DNA from: Promethearchaeota archaeon | GTDB taxonomy: Archaea; Asgardarchaeota; Hermodarchaeia; Hermodarchaeales; Hermodarchaeaceae | Length of the DNA stretch: 34,417 bases | Assembly (NCBI GenBank): GCA_048939245.1 | Contig: JBHLPR010000011.1 | Location: forward strand, 1 to 34,417 | Reading direction: 5' to 3' | In this document: positions 13,948-31,359 of the stretch, in pieces | How positions within the stretch are numbered: the first letter of the stretch is position 1 | Layout of the letters: each line of letters opens with the position of its first letter | Made by a program: the position numbers and the translations under genes | The notes under the pieces: generated by a model | Database searches by the model: none | What the model saw: only the letters and a program-made list of their open reading frames with translations | Told to the model about the DNA's origin: nothing

Positions 13948-14448
13948 ATGGTGCGACAATTTCTCTATGCTGATCCCACAGTATGTGTAGGTTGCCGGAT
14001 TTGTGAAGCAATATGTAGTCTGCACTGGGAAAAAACGATTAACCCTAAGAAGGCTCGAAACCGGGTACGTCGTGTGGATCCGGGGCTTGATGTGGTGGTT
14101 GCTTGTCGGAATTGTGATCAAGCTTGGTGTATCGAGGCATGTCCCGAAGATGCTATAAGAAGGAATCGTAAGGGCATCGTAATCGTTGATACGAAAAAAT
14201 GTAGAGGATGTGGGGCGTGTGTCGAAGCGTGTCCCTTTGGAGCCATCTTTTTGCACCCTGATACTCAAAAAGCCATTAAGTGTGTCACCTGTGGATTTTG
14301 TACAAAGTATTGCCCAGTTGACACACTTCAAATTGTGACTGACGAGCAATTGGCGGCTTTGAAGCAGGAAAAGGTGATTCAATACGAGTGTCGAGATTTA
14401 CTTGATGACCTTCGTGTGGATGAGGAGTCGGAGACAGGTGATAAGTGA
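13948..14448 (+). CDS. 4x[4Fe-4S] ferredoxin-like subunit of AOR-1
   Basis: CVGCRICEAIC, CRNC..AWCIEACP, CRGCGACVEACP, KCVTCGFCTKYCP. GAGGTGG SD. Overlaps the AOR start. Confidence 0.9.
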   Translation: MVRQFLYADPTVCVGCRICEAICSLHWEKTINPKKARNRVRRVDPGLDVVVACRNCDQAWCIEACPEDAIRRNRKGIVIVDTKKCRGCGACVEACPFGAIFLHPDTQKAIKCVTCGFCTKYCPVDTLQIVTDEQLAALKQEKVIQYECRDLLDDLRVDEESETGDK

Positions 14449-16370
14449 TGACAAAGAAAGTAAAACTTGGTGGATATGCTGGACAGCATTTGCACGTGAA
14501 TATGACCAAAGAAACGTGTAAGCCAGTTTCCCTTGACAAAGAGTTCGCCCTTATGTACTTGGGTGGACAGGGATTTTCTTCTCGAATTATGTATGATCGA
14601 GTAGGACCAACAACTGACCCACTTGGTCCTGAAAATGTGTTAATTTGGGCAACCGGTCCTTTTACTGGAACACTCTGGCCTCAGGCCGCACGATATGTAG
14701 TTGCAGCCAAATCCCCGCTAACTGGCATTTTCGGTGAAGCCCATTCAGCAGGTCATTGGGGACCAGAACTAAAATTTGCAGGATTTGACACAATCATTGT
14801 GACAGGGCGAGCAAAGAAGCCGCTCTATTTGTTTATTGATAACGGTTCTGCCCGATTACTTGACGCTCATGACCTCTGGGGGCGTAACACAGCTGAAACA
14901 GAAGAGATGATTAAAGAGCGCCAAGGTGACCGAAACATTCGTGTGTCTTGTATTGGACCCGCTGGCGAAAATCTTGTACGCTTTGCCGCTGTCATCAACG
15001 ATTACGATCGTGCGGCTGCACGATCAGGTATTGGTGCAGTCGCAGGAAGCAAGCAACTGAAAGCTGTCGCTGTTCGTGGTGGACAGGACATTCGGATTGC
15101 CAAACCAGATCGCTACCTTGAGGTCATCGAGGAGTTACATAGGAAAATGCTTTCAAGCCCCTTTACGGCTAGTCGTGCAATGTATGGAACGACTAACCTA
15201 GTCGAATTAATGCAAGAAATTGGACGCCTCCCAAGCTATAATATGCGTTCTGGTGTATTTGCAGAATACGAGAGAATTAGTGGTGAAGCTATAAGAAAGA
15301 AATATCTGGTAAAACCGCGGGCTGATTTTGCGTGTCTGCAACGTTGTGGCCGATATACTTGCGTCCGAACCGGGCCTTACGCTTATTGTGGTGGATCACC
15401 TGAATATGAAACACAATCGGCTATGGGAAGTCGATGTGGGAACGCCAATCTTGAATCCATCCTCTATGGACACCATCTAAGCAACTTGTATGGATTGGAT
15501 ACCATTTCGACTGGGGCAACAATTAGTTGGGCAATGGAGGCTTGGGATGAGGGGTTAATAACAGCGGAAGATACTGGAGGGCTAGATCTAAGCTGGGGAA
15601 ACCATGAATCTATAATCAAACTTATCCATATGATAGCACATCGTGAAGGATTCGGGGATATACTTGCGGAAGGTAGTTATCGAGCAGCTAAACGAATTGG
15701 ACGAGGAACCGAAAAATTTGTGATGCACAGTAAAAAACAAGAGATTGCAGGTCAGGAACCTCGAGCGCAAAAATCCATGGGATTAGCAGCAGCTACTGCA
15801 GCACGCGGAGCTGATCATCTGTATGCTTTTCCCGTTCTTGATGAGGTGGGATTTGACGAGGAAATCGGCATTCGCTATGGAGCGAAATATTTGCCAGAGA
15901 TTGGAGATCGGCTTGATCCTACCTATAAGGGTATCATGGTGAAAGAGAATGAAGACTTTTGTGCAGTTGTTGAATCCTTAGGGGTTTGTAAATATGGCAC
16001 ATTGATTCCTCCTGTCCTCTTTTATGAAGACATTGTGAAGGCGTTCGATGTTACAGTGGGAATCCCGATAACAGAGAACCAATTACGAGCAATTGGTGAA
16101 CGAATCGTCAACCTAAACCGTTGTTTCAATGTACGTGAAGGAATTCGTCGGAAAGACGATTCACTGCCTCGACGCCTAACAGAAACCCCTGCGCCTGAAG
16201 GACCATCGAAAGGTCAAGTTGTCGAATTAGATCAAATGCTGGATGAATATTACAAGATGCGAGGATGGCGATTGAAGGATGGAGTGCCAACTAAACGTGT
16301 CCTTCACCGACTAGACCTTGACGATTTGGTCACAGACCTCGTAAAATATGGTATAGAAATACCTGAATAA
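14445..16370 (+). CDS. Tungsten-dependent aldehyde:ferredoxin oxidoreductase family protein (paralog 1)
   Basis: KSPLTG, LKFAGFD, IGPAGEN, GSKQLKA, EYET, GLDTIS, RGADHL, LGVCKY, YYKMRGW. Confidence 0.93.
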   Translation: MMTKKVKLGGYAGQHLHVNMTKETCKPVSLDKEFALMYLGGQGFSSRIMYDRVGPTTDPLGPENVLIWATGPFTGTLWPQAARYVVAAKSPLTGIFGEAHSAGHWGPELKFAGFDTIIVTGRAKKPLYLFIDNGSARLLDAHDLWGRNTAETEEMIKERQGDRNIRVSCIGPAGENLVRFAAVINDYDRAAARSGIGAVAGSKQLKAVAVRGGQDIRIAKPDRYLEVIEELHRKMLSSPFTASRAMYGTTNLVELMQEIGRLPSYNMRSGVFAEYERISGEAIRKKYLVKPRADFACLQRCGRYTCVRTGPYAYCGGSPEYETQSAMGSRCGNANLESILYGHHLSNLYGLDTISTGATISWAMEAWDEGLITAEDTGGLDLSWGNHESIIKLIHMIAHREGFGDILAEGSYRAAKRIGRGTEKFVMHSKKQEIAGQEPRAQKSMGLAAATAARGADHLYAFPVLDEVGFDEEIGIRYGAKYLPEIGDRLDPTYKGIMVKENEDFCAVVESLGVCKYGTLIPPVLFYEDIVKAFDVTVGIPITENQLRAIGERIVNLNRCFNVREGIRRKDDSLPRRLTETPAPEGPSKGQVVELDQMLDEYYKMRGWRLKDGVPTKRVLHRLDLDDLVTDLVKYGIEIPE

Positions 16371-16395
16371 AATTTGATAAAACCGCCTTAGAAGC

Positions 16396-16415
16396 AAGGT
16401 TTAAATTTAAACCTT
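16396..16415. promoter_or_regulatory. Perfect 20-bp palindrome containing TATA-like boxes
   Basis: AAGGTTTAAA|TTTAAACCTT, upstream of the GTPase-HTH gene. Confidence 0.6.
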
Positions 16416-16497
16416 TTAAGTGTGAATTATCCGCGGGGCTTTCTAAGAATGTGCCCTTTCACTGATTAATGCAATGATATTCAAGGAATTTGGTAAT

Positions 16498-17175
16498 ATG
16501 AAAGTGCTTGTAACTGGACCCCACCTTTCTGGCAAAAGTGCCCTCATTAAGAATCTAGCCAAAGATAATGTCATTAACATTCAAGCAAATGGAACCACTG
16601 TGGGTCTTGATCATGGTGTCGCAGAAGCATTTGGAATTCCTATCCGTTTATTCGGAACACCGGGTCTTGCTCGATTTAAGGTATTACGTCGAATAATATC
16701 AGAAGGTGCTGACGGAATTCTCTTTGTAGTGGATGCAAGTAAACCTGATGGCGACGCAGAAGCCCGATACATTTGGACTGAAATCAGCGATCTCTTACCC
16801 AATGTCCCATGCATTGTTGCAGCCAATAAACAAGACCTAAGGGCTGCAAGAACACCTGAAAGAATTCGCCATGATCTTAGTTTTATGGTTGGCGTTCCTG
16901 TAATTCCAATTAGTAATAAAACGGAATATAATACAGAGAAACTTTTGCCAGCTATGGCTATGCTCATCGTCTATGAATGGAGTCCCATTCTTCGCGCTTT
17001 TGGAGCCACTGGAAAAACAGGCTTTTTTGACTTGGCTAAAAACCTCCACATCAGTGAAAGTCAGGTTCGCAACTATATACGTTGGTTTGAACTACGAAAA
17101 CTAGTTTCAGTGGACTGGGAGAGAAAAACCGCACACGTAGCCCCAGGGGTAGCAAAAATTCTTGCCCAACGATAG
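16498..17175 (+). CDS. MglA/CvnD-like small GTPase with a C-terminal winged HTH
   Basis: GPHLSGKS, TTVGLDHG, LFGTPG, FVVD, ANKQD; C-terminal DLAKNLHISESQVRNYIRWFELRKLV. The start is ATG 16498 or 16474. Confidence 0.8.
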   Translation: MKVLVTGPHLSGKSALIKNLAKDNVINIQANGTTVGLDHGVAEAFGIPIRLFGTPGLARFKVLRRIISEGADGILFVVDASKPDGDAEARYIWTEISDLLPNVPCIVAANKQDLRAARTPERIRHDLSFMVGVPVIPISNKTEYNTEKLLPAMAMLIVYEWSPILRAFGATGKTGFFDLAKNLHISESQVRNYIRWFELRKLVSVDWERKTAHVAPGVAKILAQR

Positions 17176-17222
17176 CAAATTTAAAAGCTTGTACGCTGCA
17201 TGCATGAACCGGCGGTATTAGA

Positions 17223-17996
17223 ATGATAAGTCCAGGCCCGACATGGAAAAGCCTCCTCAAGACCATCGAAGAGGCAGGTGTGGCACACCTCACGCTCATT
17301 GATCCTGATCCTATGAAACAATCAGCGGTTGTTGCAGGTAAGATTGCTAAATTTGCGGAGCAGGCTGGAAGTAATGGTATAATGGTTGGGGGATCAACAG
17401 CATTTGGGATTATTGATGAATCAGTGGAAGAAATCAAAAAACAGGTTGATATTCCAGTAATCCTGTTCCCAGGCAACGTATCAGGCCTTTCCCACTCTGC
17501 CGACGCAGTCTTTTTCATGAGTCTCTTGAATTCGCGCACAACCTACTGGATGATTGATGCACAAACTCTTGCGGCACGTCACATTAAAAGTTACAATCTT
17601 GAACCCATTTCGATGGCGTATCTTGTTGTCCATCCTGGAGGGACTGCAGGATTTGTAGGGGATGCACGACTTCTCCCTAGAGACAAACCGGAAATTGCGC
17701 TAGGCTATTCATTAGCAGCTCAATATATGGGGTTTCGACTACTCTACTTAGAGGCAGGGTCCGGCGCAGATAATACAGTTCCCCTCCCAATGATTAAACT
17801 AGTTTCAAGCAAAGTTGATATTCCTTTGGCGATAGGCGGAGGAATCAATTCCCCGGATCAAGCAGCCGCCTTATGCAACGCTGGGGCCGATATTATTATT
17901 CAAGGAACCATTATTGAACAGACAATTTTGGAGGATAAAGGGAAGCTACTCTCTAAGACAGTCGAAGCAATGCAGAACGCGAAAAAGAAAAAATAA
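17223..17996 (+). CDS. Geranylgeranylglyceryl phosphate synthase (group II)
   Basis: LTLIDPD, MVGGST, ILFPG, FMSLLNS, YLEAGSGA, GGGI, and aromatic anchor GGTAGFVG. Confidence 0.93.
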   Translation: MISPGPTWKSLLKTIEEAGVAHLTLIDPDPMKQSAVVAGKIAKFAEQAGSNGIMVGGSTAFGIIDESVEEIKKQVDIPVILFPGNVSGLSHSADAVFFMSLLNSRTTYWMIDAQTLAARHIKSYNLEPISMAYLVVHPGGTAGFVGDARLLPRDKPEIALGYSLAAQYMGFRLLYLEAGSGADNTVPLPMIKLVSSKVDIPLAIGGGINSPDQAAALCNAGADIIIQGTIIEQTILEDKGKLLSKTVEAMQNAKKKK

Positions 17997-18014
17997 TGAA
18001 TATCCCCCTGATTT

Positions 18015-18302
18015 TCACCCACCACCGATTGGTGGAAAAATTGCTACGACATCTCCTTCAGAGAGAGGAGTTTGTAATCCTTGTTGGAGTCTAACATGTC
18101 GTCCATTGACGAGGACATGAAAGTATGATTTGAGTGATCCGTCTGGCTCCAAAACCATTTTGTCAAATTTTTCTCCGAATTGCTTGCTTAGAGTGTTAAT
18201 GACTTCTTGAACATCTTCTGCCTTTAGTTGGGTTTCGCGGATTCCAGTGAGGGCTCTTAAACTAGTAAACATGCGAACAGTGACTTGGGCCTTCTTGGTC
18301 AT
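18015..18302 (-). CDS. moaD: MoaD/SAMP ubiquitin-like sulfur carrier
   Basis: Beta-grasp pattern V.VRMF..LR..G, VLVNG, L.EGD.VAIFPPIGGG*. Confidence 0.88.
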   Translation of the reverse strand: MTKKAQVTVRMFTSLRALTGIRETQLKAEDVQEVINTLSKQFGEKFDKMVLEPDGSLKSYFHVLVNGRHVRLQQGLQTPLSEGDVVAIFPPIGGG

Positions 18303-18317
18303 TTGGATTCATTCACC

Positions 18318-19508
18318 TTATCCAGTCGTCTCGAATGATAGAGCGCGATGGGGGCAGATACTTACGCAAACGCCACAGCCATAACAGAGTTTAGGATCCA
18401 CTTGGGCCTTAGATGTTTGGGGATTAACGGTGATGGCTGAGTAGGTACAGGATTTTGCGCATAATCCACACCCTGAGCAGGCGTCATTATCTACGGTGGG
18501 AGGTAGACTTTCGATTCGGAGAGTTTCAGTAGGCAGATGTTTGAGAGCCGCCCCCTGAACATCGAGTGGTGAATCGTGTCCATGGGATTTGAGGAACTCA
18601 GCCATTTCGTTAGCGATGCGTCCATAAACGGAATTTCCTTCTAATATAGCGGCGGTACAGACTTGCACAGCCGTGGCGCCGCACATAAGAAATTCGATAG
18701 CGTCTTCGCCTGTGCTAACACCTCCAACGCCAATAACAGGTTTAGACGTGCCTCGAGCAATATCAGCGACACAACGAACGGCAAGAGGTTTGATAGCTGG
18801 ACCGGATAACCAACCAACACCACCTGGCCCCCCAAGCAGTGGACGCCCGGTTTCGATATCAATGTGAAGACAGGGACCTAGCGTATTGATTGCTACGAAG
18901 CCATCAACATACCTATCTACCGCTTTAGTAAATACAGTCAAGTCTTTGACATGAGGACTCATTTTTGCAAAGACGGGAATATCTACGGCTTCTTTCAGCG
19001 TTTTTGCTACTTCGTTGAAGACTTTTGGATCAGTTTCAATATAATGGGTGCTAAATTCGATGCCATCGACACCTGCTTGCTCGACAAGTGGTGCAAGTGT
19101 TTTTAGTTCGTCTGGAGTGTAACCAACCGATGCTATGAGAGAAAGACCTGCTTCCTTTGCCCGCGGATATTCGTGCTTGAGCCATTTTTTGTAGGACTTA
19201 TCACTCCACAATTCATGATTTAGTAAACCGTATGCCCCACGCACGTTGATGCGTTCAAAATGTACAATTTTATTTTGCATCGCTGTGGCTAGTATCCATC
19301 GGCTTTTCCCACGATCAAGTGTTTGCATGTTGGGACGGGGAACCTCTGCAGGTTTCACACTGATTGTTTTTGCAACCAACCCACCGACGCCGCCCCGAGC
19401 TGCCTTCAAAAGGATCTCTGCATCTCGACTTGTCGGACCGGCAGCAGTTAATACCGGATTCCGGAGGGCGATTCCAGCAATATCCACACCTAAATTCATA
19501 GTCATCAT
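18318..19508 (-). CDS. Dihydropyrimidine/dihydroorotate dehydrogenase (PreA)-like FMN protein with a C-terminal 2x[4Fe-4S] domain
   Basis: LRNP...AAGP, KTI, N.ELWS, AINT, SGPAIKP, GVGG, VQVCTA; CSGCGLC..SC and CYGCGVC..ICP. The canonical NxSCP loop is absent. Confidence 0.85.
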   Translation of the reverse strand: MMTMNLGVDIAGIALRNPVLTAAGPTSRDAEILLKAARGGVGGLVAKTISVKPAEVPRPNMQTLDRGKSRWILATAMQNKIVHFERINVRGAYGLLNHELWSDKSYKKWLKHEYPRAKEAGLSLIASVGYTPDELKTLAPLVEQAGVDGIEFSTHYIETDPKVFNEVAKTLKEAVDIPVFAKMSPHVKDLTVFTKAVDRYVDGFVAINTLGPCLHIDIETGRPLLGGPGGVGWLSGPAIKPLAVRCVADIARGTSKPVIGVGGVSTGEDAIEFLMCGATAVQVCTAAILEGNSVYGRIANEMAEFLKSHGHDSPLDVQGAALKHLPTETLRIESLPPTVDNDACSGCGLCAKSCTYSAITVNPQTSKAQVDPKLCYGCGVCVSICPHRALSFETTG

Positions 19509-21442
19509 TCTTCAACCAACTTTCCTATTTTCGCAAGGTAATCCGCTACATCGTCTAAACCTAAGCGTACCAGTTCAGACCGTTTCGGAAGTCCATCCTT
19601 TGTCCAGTTTCGAACTTCGTAATATTCATCAAGCATTGGATCGAGATCACACACCTGACCTTTTGCAGGGCCGTCGGGAATAGGTTCTTCGGTAAACCGT
19701 GGATGAAGCTGCTCCTTTTCCCGAGTGACGCCTTCTCGGACATTAAAACAGCGTCGGAGATTACTAATCCGTTCAGCTATTGTTCTTAGCCCTTTAACAT
19801 CGCCAAATTCATCAAAGCCGGTGAGAGGACCTAACATTTCAGCAATGATATCAAAATAGTAGACCGGGGGCCACATAGTCCCATATTTGCAGAGAATTAC
19901 GCTATCGACAATTACGTAAAGGTCCTCTTGATCCTTTATTAGATGTCCTTTGTAAGCGGTGCTGTGTAAATCCATCACTTCTGAGGCGTGTTCTTCCCCA
20001 AATCGTTCGATTGCCACATCAGGAAAACCGAGTTCTTCGTAGCAGCTAAGGCTGCGGAGATGATCAGCGCCACGTACATTGGTGGCATAGGTTAACCCTA
20101 CACTCTGTTGTGGGCGGGGATCTTGACCTGAAGCCTCCATTCCTTTCACATGAATAGCGAAGCGCTCTGCTCCCTTTCCGATTTTCTGAGCAGCCCGCAT
20201 AGACCCTTCAGCCAGTAAATCACCTATTCCCTCACGTTTAGCAATCTTTTCGGTAAGGGCAATTATTGTTTCCTCCTTACCCCAGGAGAGGTCTAAGCCA
20301 TCAGCTTCCTTAGATGTGATAAGCCCATGTTCAGCAGCTTCCATTAAGAAAGCAATAGTACAACCGGTACTAATCGTATCTAATCCATAACGATTGCAAA
20401 GCTGATTCGCATAAAGAATTGATTCGATATTACTATTCAAACAGTTACTGCCAAATGCCATGAGGGTCTCATATTCTGGTCCCCCGGTCATCACCTGATA
20501 TGGACCAGATTTCACCTGGGATGTGAATTTGCATTGAAGAGCACACCCAAAACAGGATTCCCGACTTGTTCGATATTTTTTACGGATAGTTTCGGGTCCA
20601 ATGGCATCAGCATCAGGATAAACTCCAGTAGTATGATTTTTCGTGGGCAGTCGACCAATCTCTCCTATGGTTGTAACAAGGTTTGTTGTACCATATTTTC
20701 CAAGAGATTCCTCGTTCATTTCCCCCCACTTCCCGGTTGTCATCCGATCATAGCCCTTCCGTGCAGCAGCCAAGAATTTTCCGTGCTGGGCAACCTTTAC
20801 CCCACCAAATCCTCGAGCAGCGACCGCTTTTAGATTCTTACTCCCCATCACAGCTCCTCCCCCTGCCCGACCTGCCGCCCGATAATAAGAGCCTATGATG
20901 GCTGCGTAACGGACGCCATTTTCACCAGCTATTCCGATGGAAGCAACCTCGATGTCATTATCACCATGCTCTTCTTTGATGAGATCTGTGGTCTCGGTAG
21001 TATCCCGCGTCCATAGATGGGTCGCATCGTGGATAGTCACGTTCTCATCTTGCACCATAAGATAAACCGGTTTAGGTGCTTTACCTTGAATAATCAGCAT
21101 ATCAAATCCAGCGTACTTGAGTTGAGGCCCCCAATGCCCCCCACAGTGTGCTTCACCCCATACGCCGGTTAGAGGAGACTTAAAAGCCACCATAAAGCGT
21201 CCCGAAGGCGAAAAGAAGGCGCCAGTAACAGGACCTACTCCGAAAATTAATGGATTCTGCGGGTCTAAGGGATCCGTACCCGGTTTTACTCGATCCCATA
21301 AAATCCGGGAAGCAAAGCCGGTTCCACCTAAGTACGTCTTTGCAAATTCAGTATCCAATGCTTGTATTTCTACTTCAGATTTCGTTAGATCGATATCTGC
21401 AATTCTTCCAGCATATCCAAAGTATTCATTGCGCTTTGTCAT
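19505..21442 (-). CDS. Tungsten-dependent aldehyde:ferredoxin oxidoreductase family protein (paralog 2)
   Basis: KSPLTG, LKYAGFD, MGSKNLKA, CFGCALQC, EYET, GLDTIS, RGADHL, ILCKY. Confidence 0.93.
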   Translation of the reverse strand: MTKRNEYFGYAGRIADIDLTKSEVEIQALDTEFAKTYLGGTGFASRILWDRVKPGTDPLDPQNPLIFGVGPVTGAFFSPSGRFMVAFKSPLTGVWGEAHCGGHWGPQLKYAGFDMLIIQGKAPKPVYLMVQDENVTIHDATHLWTRDTTETTDLIKEEHGDNDIEVASIGIAGENGVRYAAIIGSYYRAAGRAGGGAVMGSKNLKAVAARGFGGVKVAQHGKFLAAARKGYDRMTTGKWGEMNEESLGKYGTTNLVTTIGEIGRLPTKNHTTGVYPDADAIGPETIRKKYRTSRESCFGCALQCKFTSQVKSGPYQVMTGGPEYETLMAFGSNCLNSNIESILYANQLCNRYGLDTISTGCTIAFLMEAAEHGLITSKEADGLDLSWGKEETIIALTEKIAKREGIGDLLAEGSMRAAQKIGKGAERFAIHVKGMEASGQDPRPQQSVGLTYATNVRGADHLRSLSCYEELGFPDVAIERFGEEHASEVMDLHSTAYKGHLIKDQEDLYVIVDSVILCKYGTMWPPVYYFDIIAEMLGPLTGFDEFGDVKGLRTIAERISNLRRCFNVREGVTREKEQLHPRFTEEPIPDGPAKGQVCDLDPMLDEYYEVRNWTKDGLPKRSELVRLGLDDVADYLAKIGKLVEE

Positions 21443-21945
21443 CCTTTCGCACCTCCAGTAATCACGTGAAGATAATCAGCAGCTTGTTTTACGCCTTTTT
21501 CACGGAGCCGCTTAGTCAACTCACCTGGTTCAATGTATAACAAGGCCCCTCTAGGACAAAATTGGGCACACATCGCATACCCTTCGCATAAGTCACATTT
21601 GACTGTGCGCCCATCCGTGGGATCTATATGAATTCCACCAAAGGGACAAGCGATAAGGCATTGATGACAGCCAATACAGTTCTTCTGTGTGATGCAAACG
21701 GCATTGGTGTTGGGATCTCGATAAATAGCATCAGCAGGACAACTTTCCATACATAATGGGGTTTCACAATGCTGACAGATTACTGGGATGTTAATTCCGG
21801 TTTTTTCATCGCGTATAATCGTAAGTAGCGCCCGAGCAGGATTGTACTCTTGATTGTGACGGAAGGAGCAAACCAGTGTACAAATCCCACACCCTGTACA
21901 TTTCTCCGGGTCAACGACTAGAACTTTGTGAGATGACTTGTTCAT
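21439..21945 (-). CDS. 4x[4Fe-4S] ferredoxin-like subunit of AOR-2
   Basis: CTGCGICTLVC, CQHC..PLCMESCP, CIGCHQCLIACP, KCDLC....CAQFCP. ATGA overlap with AOR-2. Confidence 0.9.
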   Translation of the reverse strand: MNKSSHKVLVVDPEKCTGCGICTLVCSFRHNQEYNPARALLTIIRDEKTGINIPVICQHCETPLCMESCPADAIYRDPNTNAVCITQKNCIGCHQCLIACPFGGIHIDPTDGRTVKCDLCEGYAMCAQFCPRGALLYIEPGELTKRLREKGVKQAADYLHVITGGAKG

Positions 21946-21976
21946 GGGAATACACGCCCTGAAAAATGGGACATGG

Positions 21977-21991
21977 AAGCCTTAAAGGCTT
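21977..21991. promoter_or_regulatory. Palindromic TATA-like element in a divergent promoter
   Basis: AAGCCT-TAA-AGGCTT lies between the divergent starts at 21945 and 22040. Confidence 0.55.
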
Positions 21992-22039
21992 ACTCGATTA
22001 CCATATTCATCAATTACCCTATGTTGGAAGCGAATACTG

Positions 22040-23371
22040 ATGCGGACATTGATCAAAAACGCGGTAATTGTTACGATGGATAATCAACGCCGGGTCCTAG
22101 AGGACACAGACCTTCTTATAGATGGGATTAAAATTAAGGCGATTGGTAAAAGCCTCAAAGAATCTGCTGACCAGGTGATTGATGGGACTGGGCGAATGGT
22201 GCTGCCTGGATTCATCTGTGGGCACACCCATCTATATGGAATCATGCTCCGGGGAGCCCCATTGGATATTAAACCTACCACTGATTTTCTCCAAATTCTC
22301 GATCGTATTTGGTGGAAGGTGGACTCTGCATTTGTAAATGAAGACGCGTATGCGAGTGCTCTTGCCGCCTGTTATGAGTTTCTTCGCAGTGGAACTACCT
22401 GTTTTGCCGATACCTATTCTGGACCAGGGTCCATTGAAGGTGTTTTGGATGCTATCGCGAAGGGTGTTACTGAAACCGGGATGCGGGGAATTCTTGCATT
22501 CGAAGCCACGGAAAGGAATTCGAAGAAGGAAGGAGAGCGAGGGCTCAAAGAGAATGTCCGATTTATCACGAAACTCCAAAAAACCCCAAACAATTTGCTC
22601 TCAGGGATGTACAGCTTACATGCCTCCTTTACCCTAAGTGATGAGTTAATCATAAAAACCAGGGAGAAAGCAGATGAGCTCCCAGCACCCCTGACGATTC
22701 ATACAAGTGAAGGGCTCATTGATGTATACCACAACATCGAAAGGTATGATAAACGCACGGTCGAACGACTCTTTGACCTTGGAGTACTTGGAACCGATGT
22801 GGTTCTAGCTCATTGTGTTCATGTCAATCACGACGAGCTTGAGTTGATTAAAGGAAGCGGGGCTATAGTTGCCCATAATCCCATGAGTAATATGAACAAT
22901 GCCGTGGGAACGAGTCCTGTGAAGGAAATGTATGAGTTGGGCATTCCAGTTTGTTTGGGGAACGATGGATTCATTTTCGATGCCATGGAAAATATCCGCA
23001 CAGCGTTCCTTGTCCATAAATTACATCACCACGATACCCGAGTAACCACACCTCAGCAAATTATTGAGATGGCAACCATTAATGGGGCCCAAGCATATGG
23101 TCTAGGAAACAAGCTTGGTTCCATCGAACAGGGAAAACTAGCAGACATTGTTATGCTTCACCCCAATCCCCGGGTTACACCGATTCTCCCTAGCGGAATT
23201 TATGGTTATCTTGTCTATGGCTGTACTGCACATGAGGTTGAGCATGTGTTCGTAAATGGTAGACAAGTGGTCGAAGACCACCAAGTAGTGTCGGTGAAAG
23301 CAGAAGTTGTTGAAAAGGCACTTGAACGGGTCGTTCCTAAACTCTGGGAGAAGCTGGGAATTAACGTTTAA
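22040..23371 (+). CDS. SsnA-like amidohydrolase
   Basis: PGFICGHTHLY..LRG, SLHASFTLSD, IHTSEG, AHCVH, HNPMSNMNNAVG, LGNDG. These motifs are closest to the SsnA subfamily. Confidence 0.8.
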   Translation: MRTLIKNAVIVTMDNQRRVLEDTDLLIDGIKIKAIGKSLKESADQVIDGTGRMVLPGFICGHTHLYGIMLRGAPLDIKPTTDFLQILDRIWWKVDSAFVNEDAYASALAACYEFLRSGTTCFADTYSGPGSIEGVLDAIAKGVTETGMRGILAFEATERNSKKEGERGLKENVRFITKLQKTPNNLLSGMYSLHASFTLSDELIIKTREKADELPAPLTIHTSEGLIDVYHNIERYDKRTVERLFDLGVLGTDVVLAHCVHVNHDELELIKGSGAIVAHNPMSNMNNAVGTSPVKEMYELGIPVCLGNDGFIFDAMENIRTAFLVHKLHHHDTRVTTPQQIIEMATINGAQAYGLGNKLGSIEQGKLADIVMLHPNPRVTPILPSGIYGYLVYGCTAHEVEHVFVNGRQVVEDHQVVSVKAEVVEKALERVVPKLWEKLGINV

Positions 23372-23661
23372 CTCAAAAACTGACCACCCGCAACTGGTGG
23401 GAATAGTGCAATGATGTCTCCATCGGAGAGCGCAGTATCAAGACCCTGTAATACGTGTAGTCCACGACCATTCACGAGAACCTTGATGTAGCGATGCAAT
23501 TGACCCTCTTTATCAAAGATTGTGTTACAGAATTTACTCCCTTGCTCTTCACAAAGCTGATTTAACAGATCCAGCACCGTGCGCCCTTTGAAATTAACCG
23601 TAAGTTGTTGAAAACCAAACCGCTCAGAAAAAGGTCCAATGGTCCGAACAATGACATGCAT
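23368..23661 (-). CDS. moaD: MoaD/SAMP ubiquitin-like protein with a short extension after GG
   Basis: TVLDLL..L, VLVNG, L.DGD.IALFPPVAGG-QFLS*. Confidence 0.8.
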   Translation of the reverse strand: MHVIVRTIGPFSERFGFQQLTVNFKGRTVLDLLNQLCEEQGSKFCNTIFDKEGQLHRYIKVLVNGRGLHVLQGLDTALSDGDIIALFPPVAGGQFLS

Positions 23662-23778
23662 AATATAGCTTCTCCTTTCACCGCAAACCTCCTGTAACTC
23701 AAAAACATGCTGGTTTCCTTATTTCCAGATAATCCCAACGCTTAATAGGAGTGAACAGCATGCTCAGTGCTGATTCAG

Positions 23779-25170
23779 ATGGCGGATTTGATAATCGACG
23801 GAGCAACCGTCATAACCGTAGATCCACAACGTCGAATCATTTCTGACGGAGCAGTGGTTGTCGATGACCAAAGAATCATTGCTGTGGGAAAATCCTATGA
23901 AATCAAGCAGCAATACAGCGCGGACACTCGAATTTCAGGGAAAAACAAGATTCTCCTCCCCGGTCTTGTCGATTGTCACGTACACCTTGCTCAAGCCCTA
24001 ATTCGGGGTACGGCAGATGACGTGGACCTCATCCCTTGGCTTCGCGATTACGTTTGGGTTTTACAAGGCAATTTTACTCCCGAAGATGGAAAAGTTAGTG
24101 CCGAACTCTGTATTGCCGAGATGCTCAAATCGGGTACAACCAGTTTCCTGGAAAGCATGATTCACAAACGCTATGGGTTCGAGGGGATTGCACGGGTTGT
24201 CGAAAAAACAGGGATACGGGGGTGTTTATCAAAGCTCTTCATGGATTGGACCGGCTACGCAGACGAAGAAGCCATCATGTATGAAGGAATGATTGAGGAC
24301 CCCGAGGAATGCATCGCTGAAACGCTTTCGATGCATACAAAATGGCAGGGAGCCGCCGAGGGACGGATCTTCATCTGGTGGGGTGCCCGAACACCGGGAG
24401 CAGTTAGCCCGGAATTATATCGCCGGGTTGCAGACCTCTCACAGAAACGCCACATGAGGATTACTATGCATCTGGGGGAAGTAAAGGAAGACGTAGAGTA
24501 TACAAAATCCCAATTCAATCAGCTACCAGCAGAGTTTGCCAATGAAGTGGGTATGATGGGAGAAAACTGCGTCTTAGTACACGGGGTGTGGATTAGTCCT
24601 CAGGAATTCCCGATTTATGTTGAAACAGGCACGCATATGTGTCATTGCCCAGCAAGCAATTCGAAATTAGCCTCCGGAATTGCACCAATTCCGGAAATGT
24701 TAGACGCTGGAATCAATGTCTGCTTGGGATGTGATGGAGGACCGAGTAATAATGCCTATGATATGTTCCGTGAAATGTTTCTTGCAGCAGTAATTCATAA
24801 AGCACGAACCTTAGATCCTTTGACGATGCCTGCAGAAACAGTGCTGGAAATGGCCACAATCAATGGGGCTAAAGCCATAGGATTGGAAAAGGAAATTGGA
24901 AGTATAGAAGTGGGAAAGCGGGCAGACTTGGTTATGGTAGACACGACACAGTTGAATCTCGCTCCCACCTATAATCCCGTCAGTAATATCATATACGCAG
25001 CCAACGGTTTCGATGTATATACAACAATTGTCAATGGACAAATCCTTGTCCACGAAGGCAAGCTTCTAACTTTGGACGAAGAGAAAGTCATTGAGAATGC
25101 CAGGATACACGGACAGAAACTACTGGAGCGAGCAGAGGTTAAGATTCAAAGTCGATGGCAAACAAATTAA
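23779..25170 (+). CDS. Amidohydrolase, COG0402 nucleobase/nucleoside deaminase type
   Basis: DCHVHLAQALIRG, MHLGE, VHGVW, HCPASNSKLASG, GCDGGPSNN. The start is ATG 23779 or GTG 23767. Confidence 0.88.
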   Translation: MADLIIDGATVITVDPQRRIISDGAVVVDDQRIIAVGKSYEIKQQYSADTRISGKNKILLPGLVDCHVHLAQALIRGTADDVDLIPWLRDYVWVLQGNFTPEDGKVSAELCIAEMLKSGTTSFLESMIHKRYGFEGIARVVEKTGIRGCLSKLFMDWTGYADEEAIMYEGMIEDPEECIAETLSMHTKWQGAAEGRIFIWWGARTPGAVSPELYRRVADLSQKRHMRITMHLGEVKEDVEYTKSQFNQLPAEFANEVGMMGENCVLVHGVWISPQEFPIYVETGTHMCHCPASNSKLASGIAPIPEMLDAGINVCLGCDGGPSNNAYDMFREMFLAAVIHKARTLDPLTMPAETVLEMATINGAKAIGLEKEIGSIEVGKRADLVMVDTTQLNLAPTYNPVSNIIYAANGFDVYTTIVNGQILVHEGKLLTLDEEKVIENARIHGQKLLERAEVKIQSRWQTN

Positions 25171-25214
25171 AGGCGCTTTTGATTTTATTCGCAGTTAATT
25201 GAGGTGACTCTATA

Positions 25215-26282
25215 ATGGGTGCTGATATTGTTGGTAAATTCCATGGTCGCGACTGGTTGACTATTCAAGAATGGAACCAAGAAGAGCTACAAACACTAAT
25301 TGATGCAGCAATTGAAATGAAGAAATTACAAAAGGCGCGTGAACCACATGATTATCTTCTTCGTCAAACGTTATTCATGATTTTCTTTAATCGATCCTTA
25401 CGCACTCGAAACTCCTTTGAAGCGGGTATGACTCAGATGGGAGGTCATGCGCACTTTCTTTCCCCACAGGATGTGTATCGACCAGCGTTGCCAGACGATG
25501 AAGAAGCGTACACTAGCGAACGCATTTCTGATGTGGCACGAGTGCTTGCGCGAATGGGTGACGCGATTGCAATTCGAATTTATGGATCTCACGCTAAATG
25601 GATTTATGGTCGTGGTCATCGAATCCTGCGTGAATTTGCTAAGTGGTCCGATGTTCCTCTCATCAACATGGAAGATGATGTATATCATCCATGCCAAGCC
25701 ATGGCTGACATGCAAGCTATCCAAGAGCACACCCCAAAGGTCCAAGGTAAAAAATTTGTTATGAGTTGGGCATACAGTCCCAGCACACAGAAACCTCTCG
25801 CTGTCCCCCAGAGTGGCATTCTAATGGGTACGAAATGGGGTATGGACACTGTCCTTGCACATCCTAAGGGCTTTGAACTAGATCCAAAAATCATTGAGAT
25901 GTGTGAGAAGAATGTTGCCGAATATGGTGGCTCCTTTGAAATCATCAATGACATGGAAGAGGCTTTTACAGGTGCCCATTATGTATACCCAAAGTGTTGG
26001 ACCAGTAAACATCATATTCCTCCAATCGCTCCTGCTGAAGATTGGGAGGGATGCAAGAAGTTATTTGATGCAAATAAGGATTGGATAGCAACACCAGACA
26101 AAATGGATCTGGGTGCAAAAGATGTCAAATACATGCATTGCTTACCAGCTGACCGAGGATTCGAAGTAGCTGACGAAGTTTTGGATGGAAAATGGAGTAT
26201 TGCTTTTGATGAAGCTGAAAATCGACTTCACACCCAAAAAGCCGTCATGGCTGCAATTATGGGTGAACCTCAGAAGCGTTAA
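25215..26282 (+). CDS. YgeW-like (knotted-type) carbamoyltransferase, paralog 1
   Basis: SLRTRNSF, HPCQ, SWAYSPSTQKPLAVPQ (YgeW-like Pro-rich loop), HCLPADRG, EAENRLH. GAGGTGA SD. Confidence 0.85.
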   Translation: MGADIVGKFHGRDWLTIQEWNQEELQTLIDAAIEMKKLQKAREPHDYLLRQTLFMIFFNRSLRTRNSFEAGMTQMGGHAHFLSPQDVYRPALPDDEEAYTSERISDVARVLARMGDAIAIRIYGSHAKWIYGRGHRILREFAKWSDVPLINMEDDVYHPCQAMADMQAIQEHTPKVQGKKFVMSWAYSPSTQKPLAVPQSGILMGTKWGMDTVLAHPKGFELDPKIIEMCEKNVAEYGGSFEIINDMEEAFTGAHYVYPKCWTSKHHIPPIAPAEDWEGCKKLFDANKDWIATPDKMDLGAKDVKYMHCLPADRGFEVADEVLDGKWSIAFDEAENRLHTQKAVMAAIMGEPQKR

Positions 26283-26290
26283 TTGGACCT

Positions 26291-27319
26291 TTAGAGTAGG
26301 TTTTCGTCGCTCATAACTAAGGATAATAGACCTTTCTGTAAATGTAGGCGATTTTCCGCTTGGTCGAAGATAACACTTTGTGGGCTATCTACAACTTCGT
26401 CGGTTGCCTCTTCGCCACGAAAGACTGGAAGACAATGCATATAGATAGCATCTTTACTGGTAAAATCCATTAAATCTGAATTACAAATCCAGTCACGATA
26501 TTTTTCGTGGAGCTTAGCTTCGCGGTCTTCACCCCATTTATCGATGCCAACAGCGGAACATTCAGCGCTCATCCATGATCGAGGATAAACAACATGGGCG
26601 CCATTATATGCTTCTTGGACGTTATTGGTAATTGAAAAATCACCGCCAGATTCGTTGGCATTTTGATGACACCATTCCATAACTTCAGGATCTAGTTCAA
26701 ATCCAGGTGGATGAGCAAGAGTAACATCCATCCCAAACCGAGTAGCAGTTAATATTGCGCTTTGTACACTACACCAAGAGCGGGAATGTCGACTATAGGC
26801 CCATGAGAAAAGGAATTTCTTTCCTTGAATCTTGGGGAAATTTTCTTGAACTGTCATGAGATCTGTTAGAGACTGACAAGGATGAAATTTGTCGTCAGCC
26901 ATGTTGATGATGGGAATATCAGCCCATTTTGCATAGTCCCGGAGCACCTGGTTCCCTCGCCCATAGACATATCCAACAGCCTTTTCGAGAATGCGAATGC
27001 CAATACCGTGACCGTATCGGGCAAGCGTCTTAGCGGTGTCTTTAACACTTTCACCTTCTCCAAGGCGCATCGCCCCAGGTTCCAGGAATTGTGCATGCCC
27101 GCCTAGTTCGGTGAGTGCGGCTTCAAAGCTAGCACGAGTTCGAGTGCTAGTATTATAAAAAAGCATGAAAAAGGTCTTATCAGATAAGAGGTGGGGAGAT
27201 TTTCCCGCTTTGCTTTTTTTCTTTAAATCTTTTGAAAATTTGAGAACCGCATCAAGTTCTTCTCGAGACCACTCTTGGGTGGTTATCATGTCTCTGCCAC
27301 GGAGATCCATCTTACTCAA
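26291..27319 (-). CDS. YgeW/OTCase-like carbamoyltransferase, paralog 2
   Basis: STRTRASF, HPCQ, SWAYSRHSRSWCSVQS, HCLPVFRG, QAENRLH. It lacks the GDxxNN and DxxxSMG motifs of true OTCases. Confidence 0.85.
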   Translation of the reverse strand: MSKMDLRGRDMITTQEWSREELDAVLKFSKDLKKKSKAGKSPHLLSDKTFFMLFYNTSTRTRASFEAALTELGGHAQFLEPGAMRLGEGESVKDTAKTLARYGHGIGIRILEKAVGYVYGRGNQVLRDYAKWADIPIINMADDKFHPCQSLTDLMTVQENFPKIQGKKFLFSWAYSRHSRSWCSVQSAILTATRFGMDVTLAHPPGFELDPEVMEWCHQNANESGGDFSITNNVQEAYNGAHVVYPRSWMSAECSAVGIDKWGEDREAKLHEKYRDWICNSDLMDFTSKDAIYMHCLPVFRGEEATDEVVDSPQSVIFDQAENRLHLQKGLLSLVMSDENLL

Positions 27320-30096: not shown

Positions 30097-31359
30097 TTAT
30101 TTTTTGAGTCCAAGGGCATTGCGAAGTTGTTTAAGGTCTGGATCAATTACAGGTGGTTTTGAGACTCGTTGAATTACGATATCTTGGTCCTTTAGCCCGC
30201 CCCCAGTTGCCTCAATGATAATTGTTTCTGAAGGGTCTTGAGCTCCAGATTCAAGGTGATTAATTAACCCTGCAAGGCCTGTTACTCCTGAAGGTTCGGC
30301 AAAAATACCTTCATATTTTGCCAATAGTTGCTGGGCATGCAGGATAGCCTCATCGTCTACTGCAAGTGCTGAACCTTTTGAATCCCGTACTGCAGCTAGT
30401 GCAAGATCACCGTCCCAGGGAAGTGGATCACATAATCCTTCCGCAACACTATGAGGTGAAGTATAAGGGATGATTTTGAATGGATCCTGGTTTGTTTGAT
30501 AAGCTTGTACTAGCGGAGGACACCCTGTAGCTTGAACTGCGACCATCTGTGGGTGTTTCTTTACTAGTCCAAGGCTTTCGAAGTCTGTGAACCCACGCCA
30601 TTGCCCACCCAGAAGTCCACCACCCCCCACCTGAACGTAGACGACGTCAGGTACTTGCCATTCTAGTTGTTCGATAATCTCATAGGCCAGGGTCTTGGGA
30701 CCTTCAGCTTGGTAAGGATTGAAAGGTCCAAAGCTTGGACAGGGAGTCCAGCCATACTCTGCACAAGCGTCTCGTAGAAGTTTAACCGTTGGATCGTCGC
30801 CTTTGTGTAATCCCCGAAGACGAACGACTTTTGCGCCATACAAGAGTAATTGGGCAATTTTCCCCATTGGGGCTATATCAGGTACAAAACAATAACATGA
30901 AAATCCAGCACGCGCACAGTAGGCGGCAAGAGCTGCGGCGGCATTCCCACTACTGGCGGAAGCTAAGGTAGTGGATCCTTGTTCGTTAGCTTTGGATACG
31001 CCCACTGTCATTGGTCGATCTTTAAACGACCATGTCGGATTTCGAGTTTCATCTTTGATGTATAGTTCACGAACCCCTAAGTACTCAGCAAGGCGCCTAC
31101 TTCGAAGGAGAGGGGTTCCGCCTTCACCAAGCGTTATTATGCTTTTTCGATCTAATATTGGAAGTAGTTCAAAATAACGCCAAACGCCAACAGGGCGCTT
31201 CTTAAGGGTCTTTTTAGAAATTACTTCTTTTAGCTTTGAAAAATCATAATATATATCGATACGGTTCTCACATTTTGGAGTTTTACAAAATTGTGGATTT
31301 TGAGAGAGGGTATATTTTGCTCCGCATTTAGGGCATCGTAGATGCGTGACATATGACAA
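30097..31359 (-). CDS. thrC: Threonine synthase-like PLP fold-type II enzyme
   Basis: N-terminal Zn ribbon, WRY..LLP, LGEGGTPL, KDETRNPTWSFKDR, ASSGN, EG.KT, EPSG, TGGGLK. Confidence 0.8.
   Translation of the reverse strand: MSYVTHLRCPKCGAKYTLSQNPQFCKTPKCENRIDIYYDFSKLKEVISKKTLKKRPVGVWRYFELLPILDRKSIITLGEGGTPLLRSRRLAEYLGVRELYIKDETRNPTWSFKDRPMTVGVSKANEQGSTTLASASSGNAAAALAAYCARAGFSCYCFVPDIAPMGKIAQLLLYGAKVVRLRGLHKGDDPTVKLLRDACAEYGWTPCPSFGPFNPYQAEGPKTLAYEIIEQLEWQVPDVVYVQVGGGGLLGGQWRGFTDFESLGLVKKHPQMVAVQATGCPPLVQAYQTNQDPFKIIPYTSPHSVAEGLCDPLPWDGDLALAAVRDSKGSALAVDDEAILHAQQLLAKYEGIFAEPSGVTGLAGLINHLESGAQDPSETIIIEATGGGLKDQDIVIQRVSKPPVIDPDLKQLRNALGLKK

Follow-up and report, generated by a model that had tools for sequence, protein, structure and literature searches.

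A candidate archaeal system for reductive purine degradation that joins tungsten-type oxidoreductases to a UacX-type ring reductase

We analyzed a 34,417-nucleotide stretch of DNA (hereafter the window; contig JBHLPR010000011.1 of assembly GCA_048939245.1) from a Promethearchaeota archaeon of the Hermodarchaeaceae, in which positions 13948 to 27319 carry a cluster of genes for two tungsten-type oxidoreductases of the aldehyde oxidoreductase (AOR) family with their iron-sulfur (FeS) subunits, a PreA-like flavin mononucleotide (FMN)/FeS reductase, an SsnA-like amidohydrolase, a deaminase-type amidohydrolase, two MoaD-type proteins and two carbamoyltransferases. The cluster is probably a ferredoxin-linked, ATP-yielding archaeal variant of reductive (2,8-dioxopurine-type) purine degradation. 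The full statement, in which this purine-type pathway also has the AORs performing redox steps at purine carbons, is one that we put forward tentatively and with some doubt.

Gene content and conservation of the cluster

Open reading frame (ORF) calling with Pfam and NCBIfam scans recovered every gene that a first-pass annotation of this DNA had named (a ferredoxin gene with a first AOR, an operon of ferredoxin, second AOR, PreA-like and MoaD genes, an SsnA-like gene, a second MoaD, a deaminase and two carbamoyltransferases), each at its expected position and with the domains ascribed to it. The features are as follows.

13948–14448, forward: Fd1, AorA-type poly-[4Fe-4S] electron-transfer subunit of AOR1 (Fer4 families; about four [4Fe-4S] motifs, 17 Cys)
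14445–16370, forward: AOR1, tungsten-type AOR-family oxidoreductase, cluster subclade I (AFOR_N 248 and AFOR_C 435 bits)
16474–17175, forward: small GTPase, Ras/Arf-like family
17223–17996, forward: geranylgeranylglyceryl phosphate synthase (GGGPS/PcrB), PcrB family
18015–18302, reverse: MoaD1, MoaD/SAMP-type (TIGR01687 75.8 bits, cut-off 49.5; SAMP1 66.3 bits, cut-off 60)
18318–19508, reverse: PreA-like (UacX-type) FMN/2x[4Fe-4S] ring reductase (DHO_dh and Fer4)
19505–21442, reverse: AOR2, tungsten-type AOR, cluster subclade II (AFOR_N 264 and AFOR_C 424 bits)
21439–21945, reverse: Fd2, AorA-type poly-[4Fe-4S] subunit of AOR2
22040–23371, forward: SsnA-like putative ring-opening amidohydrolase (top model NF005540)
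23368–23661, reverse: MoaD2, MoaD/SAMP-type (SAMP1 62.6 bits, TIGR01687 61 bits)
23767–25170, forward: deaminase-type amidohydrolase of the methylthioadenosine/S-adenosylhomocysteine (MTA/SAH)-, 8-oxoguanine- and guanine-deaminase group (DadD model 425 bits, cut-off 522)
25215–26282, forward: CT1, carbamoyltransferase of the knotted class whose proline-rich loop is YgeW-like (OTCace_N and OTCace)
26291–27319, reverse: CT2, carbamoyltransferase paralogue with a different substrate loop

The grouping of these genes is not due to chance: they form one conserved unit over several archaeal phyla. PreA-like orthologs were present in 124 of the 400 genomes of our Asgard survey, and all 20 loci excised from four lineages (the same genus, one Baldrarchaeota metagenome-assembled genome (MAG), Thorarchaeota and one Heimdall-labelled MAG) were syntenic, holding Fd2-AOR2-PreA-like, MoaD, Fd1-AOR1 and a deaminase ortholog at 50–65% identity. 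A wider scan, covering one genome per prokaryote species, yielded 415 PreA-like loci; among the best 80 of these 415, an AOR of the cluster clade was found in 64, an AOR abutted the PreA-like gene (<300 bp) in 38, and a xanthine dehydrogenase (XDH) gene lay within 10 kb in none. The core occurs in Hermod, Baldr, Thor and Heimdall lineages and in MAGs of Bathyarchaeia, Nitrososphaeria, Korarchaeia-type Thermoproteota and Geothermarchaeota, with synteny retained at 50–65% identity over at least eight archaeal lineages. A complete set is seen in Nitrososphaeria-labelled loci, which hold CT1 (65%), a hydantoinase-like gene, CT2 (49%), three AORs, the PreA-like and SsnA-like genes and a further amidohydrolase. 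AOR1 orthologs that are 60–67% identical occur in Baldr, Thor, Nitrososphaeria and Thermoproteota loci, Fd1 orthologs adjoin AOR1-type genes in other lineages, deaminase orthologs (50–54% identity) flank Thor and Heimdall clusters, and SsnA-like orthologs adjoin the PreA-like gene in Baldr, Heimdall, Bathy, Hadarchaeum and Desulfurococcaceae loci. The neighborhood and co-occurrence analysis for which the first-pass annotation had called thus links this AOR clade to PreA-like, SsnA-like and carbamoyltransferase genes across archaeal phyla.

Within the window, Fd1 and AOR1 overlap by 4 bp (GTGA, the AOR1 start codon being GTG), and the operon on the opposite strand is indeed joined by overlaps, 4-bp ATGA sequences linking Fd2 to AOR2 and AOR2 to the PreA-like gene, with MoaD1 following 15 bp beyond the latter. 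The SsnA-like gene is divergent from Fd2, with 94 bp between them. MoaD1 ends in GGG, so that its C-terminal glycine is free, the state of active MoaD/SAMP proteins, and is probably a small sulfur carrier for cofactor maturation. In MoaD2 four residues (QFLS) extend beyond the GG, and this protein would therefore need C-terminal processing like a ubiquitin-type precursor. The small GTPase and GGGPS genes, which had been noted as unrelated genes interrupting the cluster, do so here, but between AOR1 and MoaD1 they are found only in loci of the same genus; they are a genus-specific insertion outside the system. To the right of position 27319 come genes for TatD, GlmS and the single threonine synthase of the genome, and because these are housekeeping genes we place the right boundary of the cluster at about 27319. 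The PALP gene at 30097–31359 was considered as a YgeX analogue and ruled out, being that threonine synthase (353 bits vs. 303). The source assembly is 2.52 Mb and 88% complete, and the closest public relatives are MAGs titled Candidatus Hermodarchaeota, in agreement with the Asgard host that had been presumed.

Relation to the reductive purine pathway

The bacterial anaerobic urate/purine cluster comprises xdh, ygfK, ssnA, hyuA, ygeW, ygeY, ygeX/dpaL and a carbamate kinase gene. In this pathway XdhD reduces urate to 2,8-dioxopurine, which YgfK or UacX dearomatises only when coupled to SsnA, while HyuA opens hydantoin and YgeW and carbamate kinase make ATP (bioRxiv 10.1101/2025.05.19.654654; 10.1101/2025.04.24.650524). 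Li et al. found 2,8-dioxopurine reduction to be undetectable without SsnA and suggested unfavourable thermodynamics (bioRxiv 10.1101/2025.05.19.654654). In C. difficile, YgfK is replaced by UacX, a PF01180 FMN protein without a flavin adenine dinucleotide (FAD) domain that is coupled to SsnA (bioRxiv 10.1101/2025.05.19.654654).

The first-pass annotation proposed that the PreA-like protein replaces YgfK, for which UacX provides a precedent (bioRxiv 10.1101/2025.05.19.654654). In domain layout and linkage to SsnA the protein matches the UacX type as published, having a DHO_dh FMN domain with FeS clusters and no FAD/NAD(P)H domain. Judged by its sequence, it is not a dihydropyrimidine dehydrogenase. 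It fails the PreA model NF006183 (192.6 bits, cut-off 335), carries an insertion plus a rebuilt loop, and has EFSTHY in place of the catalytic Cys loop (NVSCP/NxSCP), while the canonical PreA and PyrD of the source genome retain NVSCP. An E(F/I)STHY loop and an FxKxSP motif are common to the PreA-like protein, its orthologs and the dihydroorotate dehydrogenase (DHODH)-like reductase of an XDH/SsnA/HyuA cluster in another Asgard family, f7, and the PreA-like protein and this f7 reductase are reciprocal best matches. A complete f7 genome has a uricolytic gene set of bacterial type in two parts (L062 and L063, G015:C1:2918000-2952000), of which the first reads HyuA-SsnA-DHODH-like-(ThrC-like)-XDH small subunit-XDH large subunit-XdhC and the second, nearby, carbamoyltransferase-YgeY-XdhD-like; its YgeY is 60% identical to that of E. 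coli, hinting at horizontal transfer. The f7 ThrC-like paralogue (217 bits, below cut-off) sits where YgeX might be expected. The best matches in the source genome to the f7 reductase, SsnA and carbamoyltransferase, the last of these beside YgeY, are the PreA-like protein, the SsnA-like protein and CT1/CT2, respectively.

The substrate had been given as purine or pyrimidine, and a purine-type substrate is the one favoured. Pyrimidine degradation was rejected as the principal interpretation, uracil and thymine being already covered by a canonical reductive pyrimidine cluster on another contig (C102:1-9024, L058), where an M20 peptidase gene is accompanied by genes for a dihydropyrimidinase (499 bits, cut-off 393), a CN-hydrolase, a class-III aminotransferase and a true PreA (441 bits, cut-off 335). 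An FeS protein gene comes next, and we identified no PreT-like NAD(P)H subunit in that cluster. In other lineages the AOR/PreA module has adenine deaminase genes beside it (L053, L100, L152), as well as genes for Bmp-type nucleoside ABC transporters (six loci, among them L051 and L054) and one resembling purine nucleoside phosphorylase. The source genome has an adenine deaminase ortholog on contig C38, and an ortholog of the M24 peptidase found in Thor clusters (see below) lies 5.4 kb from it.

The SsnA-like protein scores 382 bits on NF005540 (cut-off 444) and 365 bits on TIGR03314 (cut-off 455.5), below both thresholds; SsnA is its top family by 95 bits, the next family reaching 288 bits, and the SsnA of the f7 XDH cluster likewise stays under the cut-off of 444 with 367 bits. 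Its clade appears as sister to the E. coli and f7 SsnA proteins (88/78), apart from the deaminase clade and GuaD, in a tree with few outgroups into which one long branch intrudes. The deaminase-type protein falls in a separate clade of that tree and has the MTA/SAH deaminase 4f0r as its best solved match. A histidine-utilisation reading of the amidohydrolases was discarded, because HutF and HutI gave far lower model scores than SsnA and DadD. In another Asgard family (L067, G058:C93) an SsnA-like gene lies beside PreA, dihydropyrimidinase, CN-hydrolase and aminotransferase genes, and elsewhere (L075, G010:C197) an ortholog directly adjoins an XDH large subunit; because its neighbours differ in these loci, the SsnA-like gene looks like a mobile module among nucleobase clusters.

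Both carbamoyltransferases had been called YgeW-type. They are the genome's best matches to E. coli YgeW (33–34% identity, vs. 25% for the ornithine carbamoyltransferase (OTCase) on contig C100), and CT1 has the E. coli YgeW loop WAYSPSxxKPLxVPQ nearly letter for letter. CT2, which is 46% identical to CT1, retains SWAYS and diverges beyond it; MHCLP is present in both. However, they fail the YgeW models NF005538 and TIGR03316 (cut-offs 453 and 500), on which CT1 reaches 154 and 147 bits and CT2 172 and 159 bits, and their best models are those of N-acetylornithine/ornithine carbamoyltransferase (N-acetylornithine carbamoyltransferase (AOTCase) 287.6 bits for CT1 and 283 for CT2, cut-off 288), so "YgeW-type" denotes a resemblance and not a family assignment. 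Of the orthologs of CT1, all 50–65% identical, some flank the AOR cluster in Nitrososphaeria, where orthologs of CT2 (49–50%) are also found; others, on a metagenome contig (L055) and in Desulfurococcaceae, adjoin carbamate kinase (392 bits), SsnA-like (368 bits on the SsnA model) and PreA-like genes. In the cultured Desulfurococcaceae isolate Thermogladius sp. 4427co (L146; chromosome NZ_CP196893.1, 178839–200038) the CT1-like, carbamate kinase, SsnA-like and PreA-like genes are adjacent to one another and no AOR lies close by; three XDH-family genes are found elsewhere.

As the first-pass annotation had cautioned, HyuA, YgeY and carbamate kinase are absent from the window; of these, the genome search found only a carbamate kinase, on contig C28 (C28:5857-6795; arcC 371.9 bits, cut-off 358; identity to E. 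coli YqeA 48%). At this locus (C28:5857-8250, L059) the kinase gene is divergent from one for a pyridoxal phosphate (PLP) enzyme like threo-3-hydroxy-L-aspartate ammonia-lyase or serine/threonine dehydratase (428 bits, cut-off 452), which might substitute for the diaminopropionate ammonia-lyase that is lacking. Two transferases, with no close YgeY, point to phosphorolytic removal of both ureido groups.

The AOR clade and a proposed mechanism

The AORs of these clusters form three subclades in our tree, AOR1-type (100%), AOR2-type (94%, normally beside the PreA-like gene) and a third type (100%) that includes a Fd+AOR pair of the source genome on contig C86 (AOR at C86:19465-21387). Together the three are supported at 96%, to the exclusion of the five other AORs among the eight AOR genes of the source genome. 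RGADH precedes and includes the catalytic His in 15 of 15 aligned cluster AORs (five per subclade), while the other AORs of the genome have RGGCH, RGGSH or similar at this site; accordingly the residue before His448 (P. furiosus AOR numbering) is Asp, not Cys, in AOR1 and AOR2. Cluster AORs also share two insertions, a loop of about 12 residues after the catalytic His and WPP/IPP after the fourth FeS Cys. On the NCBIfam AOR equivalog AOR1 and AOR2 reach 221–225 bits against a cut-off of 868; family membership is what points to tungsten rather than molybdenum, and to aldehyde oxidation, in both. The best solved match of Fd2 is the AorA subunit of the A. aromaticum AOR (8c0z_C, 123 bits), followed by the FeS subunit of 9mqx. 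The surroundings of the third AOR on C86 (acyl-CoA dehydrogenase, aldehyde dehydrogenase, Asp-tRNA ligase) were uninformative as a source of context.

The XDH-family molybdenum cofactor domain (PF02738) was found neither in the 88%-complete source genome nor in any of 18 genomes of the same family. Across the 400 Asgard genomes, both the AOR2 clade and orthologs of the PreA-like protein occur in 14 of 14 genomes of f1-g1 and in 80–82 of 89 Thor genomes, with XDH in 0 of 18 f1 and 1 of 89 Thor genomes; family f7 shows the reverse, with XDH in 29 of 31 genomes and the AOR2 clade in none of the 31. Over Asgard families the distribution of the AOR2 clade matches that of the PreA-like protein. All five tested genomes with a PreA/SsnA module and no AOR nearby have XDH genes. 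This distribution speaks for a connection between the cluster AORs and the XDH function that is missing, but the Asgard pattern amounts to a handful of lineages, since kin are not independent.

From these observations we infer a substrate, a series of reactions, a metal (tungsten rather than molybdenum) and a complex. A purine base, possibly deaminated by the deaminase-type amidohydrolase, would be brought to the right oxidation pattern, dearomatised by the PreA-like (UacX-type) FMN/FeS reductase and opened by the SsnA-like amidohydrolase. CT1 and CT2 would then take off the remaining ureido groups by phosphorolysis, and the resulting carbamoyl phosphate would give ATP via the carbamate kinase on C28. 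Built into this system would be AorAB-type pairs, two in the window and the third-clade pair on C86, and Fd2-AOR2-PreA-like is a single translationally coupled unit of AorABC shape in which the FAD subunit is swapped for a ring reductase. In our leading hypothesis the AORs would carry out the ring-carbon hydroxylation and dehydroxylation that the XDH-family enzymes XdhA and XdhD perform elsewhere, exchanging electrons with the reductase and ferredoxin through the poly-FeS subunit. It is conceivable, though rather doubtful, that an ancient AOR supergroup of three subclades, each with an AorA-type FeS subunit, (de)hydroxylates purine carbons instead of XDH, and that one of them is complexed with a UacX-type reductase, electronically coupling (de)hydroxylation to dearomatisation. 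In the library searched we found no paper linking tungsten or AORs to the dioxopurine pathway or to archaea with SsnA, or describing this pathway in archaea.

Competing readings and comparison with known systems

Several observations weigh against the purine pathway with AORs acting on purine carbons, and they concern the oxidoreductases on one side and the substrate on the other. AOR-family tungstoenzymes are known to act only on aldehydes, acids, acylsulfonates and benzoyl-CoA, and none is known to act on N-heterocycles. The nearest solved structures of AOR1 and AOR2 are 9mqx (444–451 bits), 1aor (428–440 bits) and the AorB subunit of 8c0z (385–395 bits), and both proteins retain Glu313, His448, the Thr region and the cluster ligands Cys288/291/295/494. 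Because these aldehyde-oxidising catalytic residues are intact, a purine role for the AORs is something that we only infer. A 2025 review of tungsten enzymes leaves purines and heterocycles unmentioned. Among longer proteins there were no AOR-PreA or FeS-PreA fusions, which is weak evidence. The PreA-like/SsnA-like/carbamoyltransferase module lacks a neighbouring AOR in Desulfurococcaceae and Hadarchaeum, and outside Asgard five of ten genomes with an AOR-type cluster also carry XDH-family genes. Strict complementarity of XDH and AOR, which holds within Asgard, therefore fails outside it; XDH-family genes have many other functions, which makes their co-occurrence indecisive in either direction.

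These points bear most directly on a reading in which the same nucleobase cluster is at work and the AORs stay aldehyde/acid oxidoreductases, either oxidising an aldehyde and supplying very low-potential electrons via the AorA-type FeS subunit directly to the PreA-like protein for an unfavourable dearomatisation, or removing a downstream aldehyde. We consider this, the main rival, unlikely. In its favour, the catalytic Glu, His and Thr and the FeS ligands are intact, the nearest structures are true AORs, the order Fd2-AOR2-PreA-like-MoaD copies aorA-aorB-aorC-aorD/E with the electron-output subunit exchanged, and the unfavourable reduction of 2,8-dioxopurine would be helped by a low-potential donor. 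The AOR-free modules and the genomes with both XDH and an AOR cluster also fit it. Against it, the known pathway has no aldehyde intermediate (bioRxiv 10.1101/2025.05.19.654654). The clusters also have no conserved gene that would produce an aldehyde. They keep together two or three distinct AOR subclades that parted long ago and have separate FeS subunits, and this is hard to explain by a simple electron-donor role. The clade moreover has its own signature next to the active site, and the source genome and its Asgard relatives would be left without an oxopurine-interconverting enzyme. The earlier proposal that tungsten AORs replace XDH is supported in so far as the genome has no XDH, and is weakened by the proximity of these enzymes to the aldehyde-oxidising group with its catalytic residues kept; the first-pass annotation had paired such placement with loss of linkage as grounds for abandoning the proposal, yet the linkage is conserved.

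The remaining points concern the substrate. The lower pathway is incomplete in the source genome, since the window has no HyuA-type gene (the genome's only HyuA-like proteins being the C102 dihydropyrimidinase, 37% identical to HyuA, and PyrC), the best match to YgeY in the 88%-complete genome is only 28% identical, and YgeX/DpaL has no match there at E<=1e-5. Compared with their counterparts in XDH-type clusters, the SsnA-like and PreA-like proteins and the carbamoyltransferases show only 30–42% identity, and every one of them lies below curated cut-offs, so their substrate could differ. In Thor genomes the SsnA-like gene is not linked to the cluster and has only an Amidohydro_2 protein, DUF362 and unknown proteins as neighbours, and in family f10 it stands beside a pyrimidine-type cluster. 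In place of the GTPase and GGGPS genes, Thor clusters (L040, G312:C3; also L108-L157) contain two or three histidine kinases with PAS domains, a PfkB-family kinase, an M24 peptidase of creatinase/prolidase type and an allantoinase/hydantoinase-like cyclic amidohydrolase.

A different ureido-containing heterocycle, such as a modified base or nucleoside, a pterin/lumazine, an orotate-like or hydantoin-type compound, or pyrimidines, could be degraded by the same logic of reduction, hydrolysis and carbamoyl transfer, and is in our judgment distinctly improbable. It draws on the sub-threshold SsnA, PreA and YgeW scores and low identities, on the insertion and rebuilt loop of the PreA-like protein, on the f10 linkage and the PfkB and M24 genes of Thor, and on accessory amidohydrolases that differ by lineage (deaminase-type, allantoinase/hydantoinase-like, DHOase-like). 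Set against these are the EFSTHY loop, found also in the reductase of a cluster with XDH, XdhC, SsnA, HyuA and a YgeY 60% identical to that of E. coli, the recurrence of adenine deaminase, Bmp nucleoside transporters and purine-type deaminases beside the module, and the coverage of uracil and thymine by C102. That the genes are neighbours by chance and do no joint work is extremely improbable, for although the GTPase and GGGPS genes interrupt the cluster, the genome has eight AOR genes and the Thor SsnA-like gene is unlinked, there are start/stop overlaps, synteny is kept at 50–65% identity over at least eight lineages, the AOR2-clade and PreA-like distributions match, and only the three cluster subclades, not other AORs, are involved.

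Nucleic acids are a major substrate in anoxic sediments. If reductive purine degradation is the correct reading, the anaerobic purine pathway described in gut bacteria in 2025 would extend to several archaeal phyla that dominate such sediments, with substrate-level ATP from carbamoyl phosphate. Should the AORs act on purine carbons, they would gain their first N-heterocycle substrate and a reaction class new to the family, a tungsten enzyme displacing a molybdenum hydroxylase, and widespread sediment archaea of Hermod, Thor, Baldr, Bathyarchaeia and Korarchaeia-type lineages would ferment purines without molybdenum hydroxylases. Even on the conservative reading the enzyme architecture, in which an AorAB module feeds a ring reductase, would be new. 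Assays have been published for UacX/SsnA and for YgeW/YqeA, and Thermogladius sp. 4427co, a cultured relative with the AOR-less module, could serve as an experimental handle.

Among known systems, the reductive Pyd pathway of pyrimidine degradation has the same outline, in which the C=C of a lactam ring is reduced, the ring is hydrolysed and the carbamoyl group is removed. The reductase of the window, however, fails the PreA model and is without the Cys loop, and the carbamoyl group would be removed by transferases where Pyd uses a nitrilase-type amidase. The A. aromaticum AorABC system shares the gene order of poly-FeS subunit, tungsten subunit, third subunit and MoaD-like gene, MoaD1 occupying the position of aorD/aorE in the aor operon (PMC6365974). 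It differs in that the FAD/NAD subunit AorC is absent from the window and the third gene encodes a DHODH-family FMN/2x[4Fe-4S] protein that would reduce a substrate, in the RGADH that replaces RGGCH beside the catalytic His together with the two clade-specific insertions, and in its context, which is amidohydrolases and carbamoyltransferases here and aromatic amino-acid catabolism for AorABC. The C. difficile-type variant of the purine pathway (XdhD, UacX, SsnA, HyuA, UacY or YgeW+YqeA, YgeY and YgeX) likewise pairs an FAD-free DHODH-family FMN/FeS reductase with an SsnA-type amidohydrolase and has a carbamoyltransferase and carbamate kinase for ATP. In contrast to that variant, the source genome has no close YgeY, no HyuA in the window, no YgeX/DpaL and no XDH-family enzyme, its shared proteins are the distant, sub-threshold relatives described above, and it has instead two carbamoyltransferases and two AorAB-type AORs in the cluster, with a third on C86.

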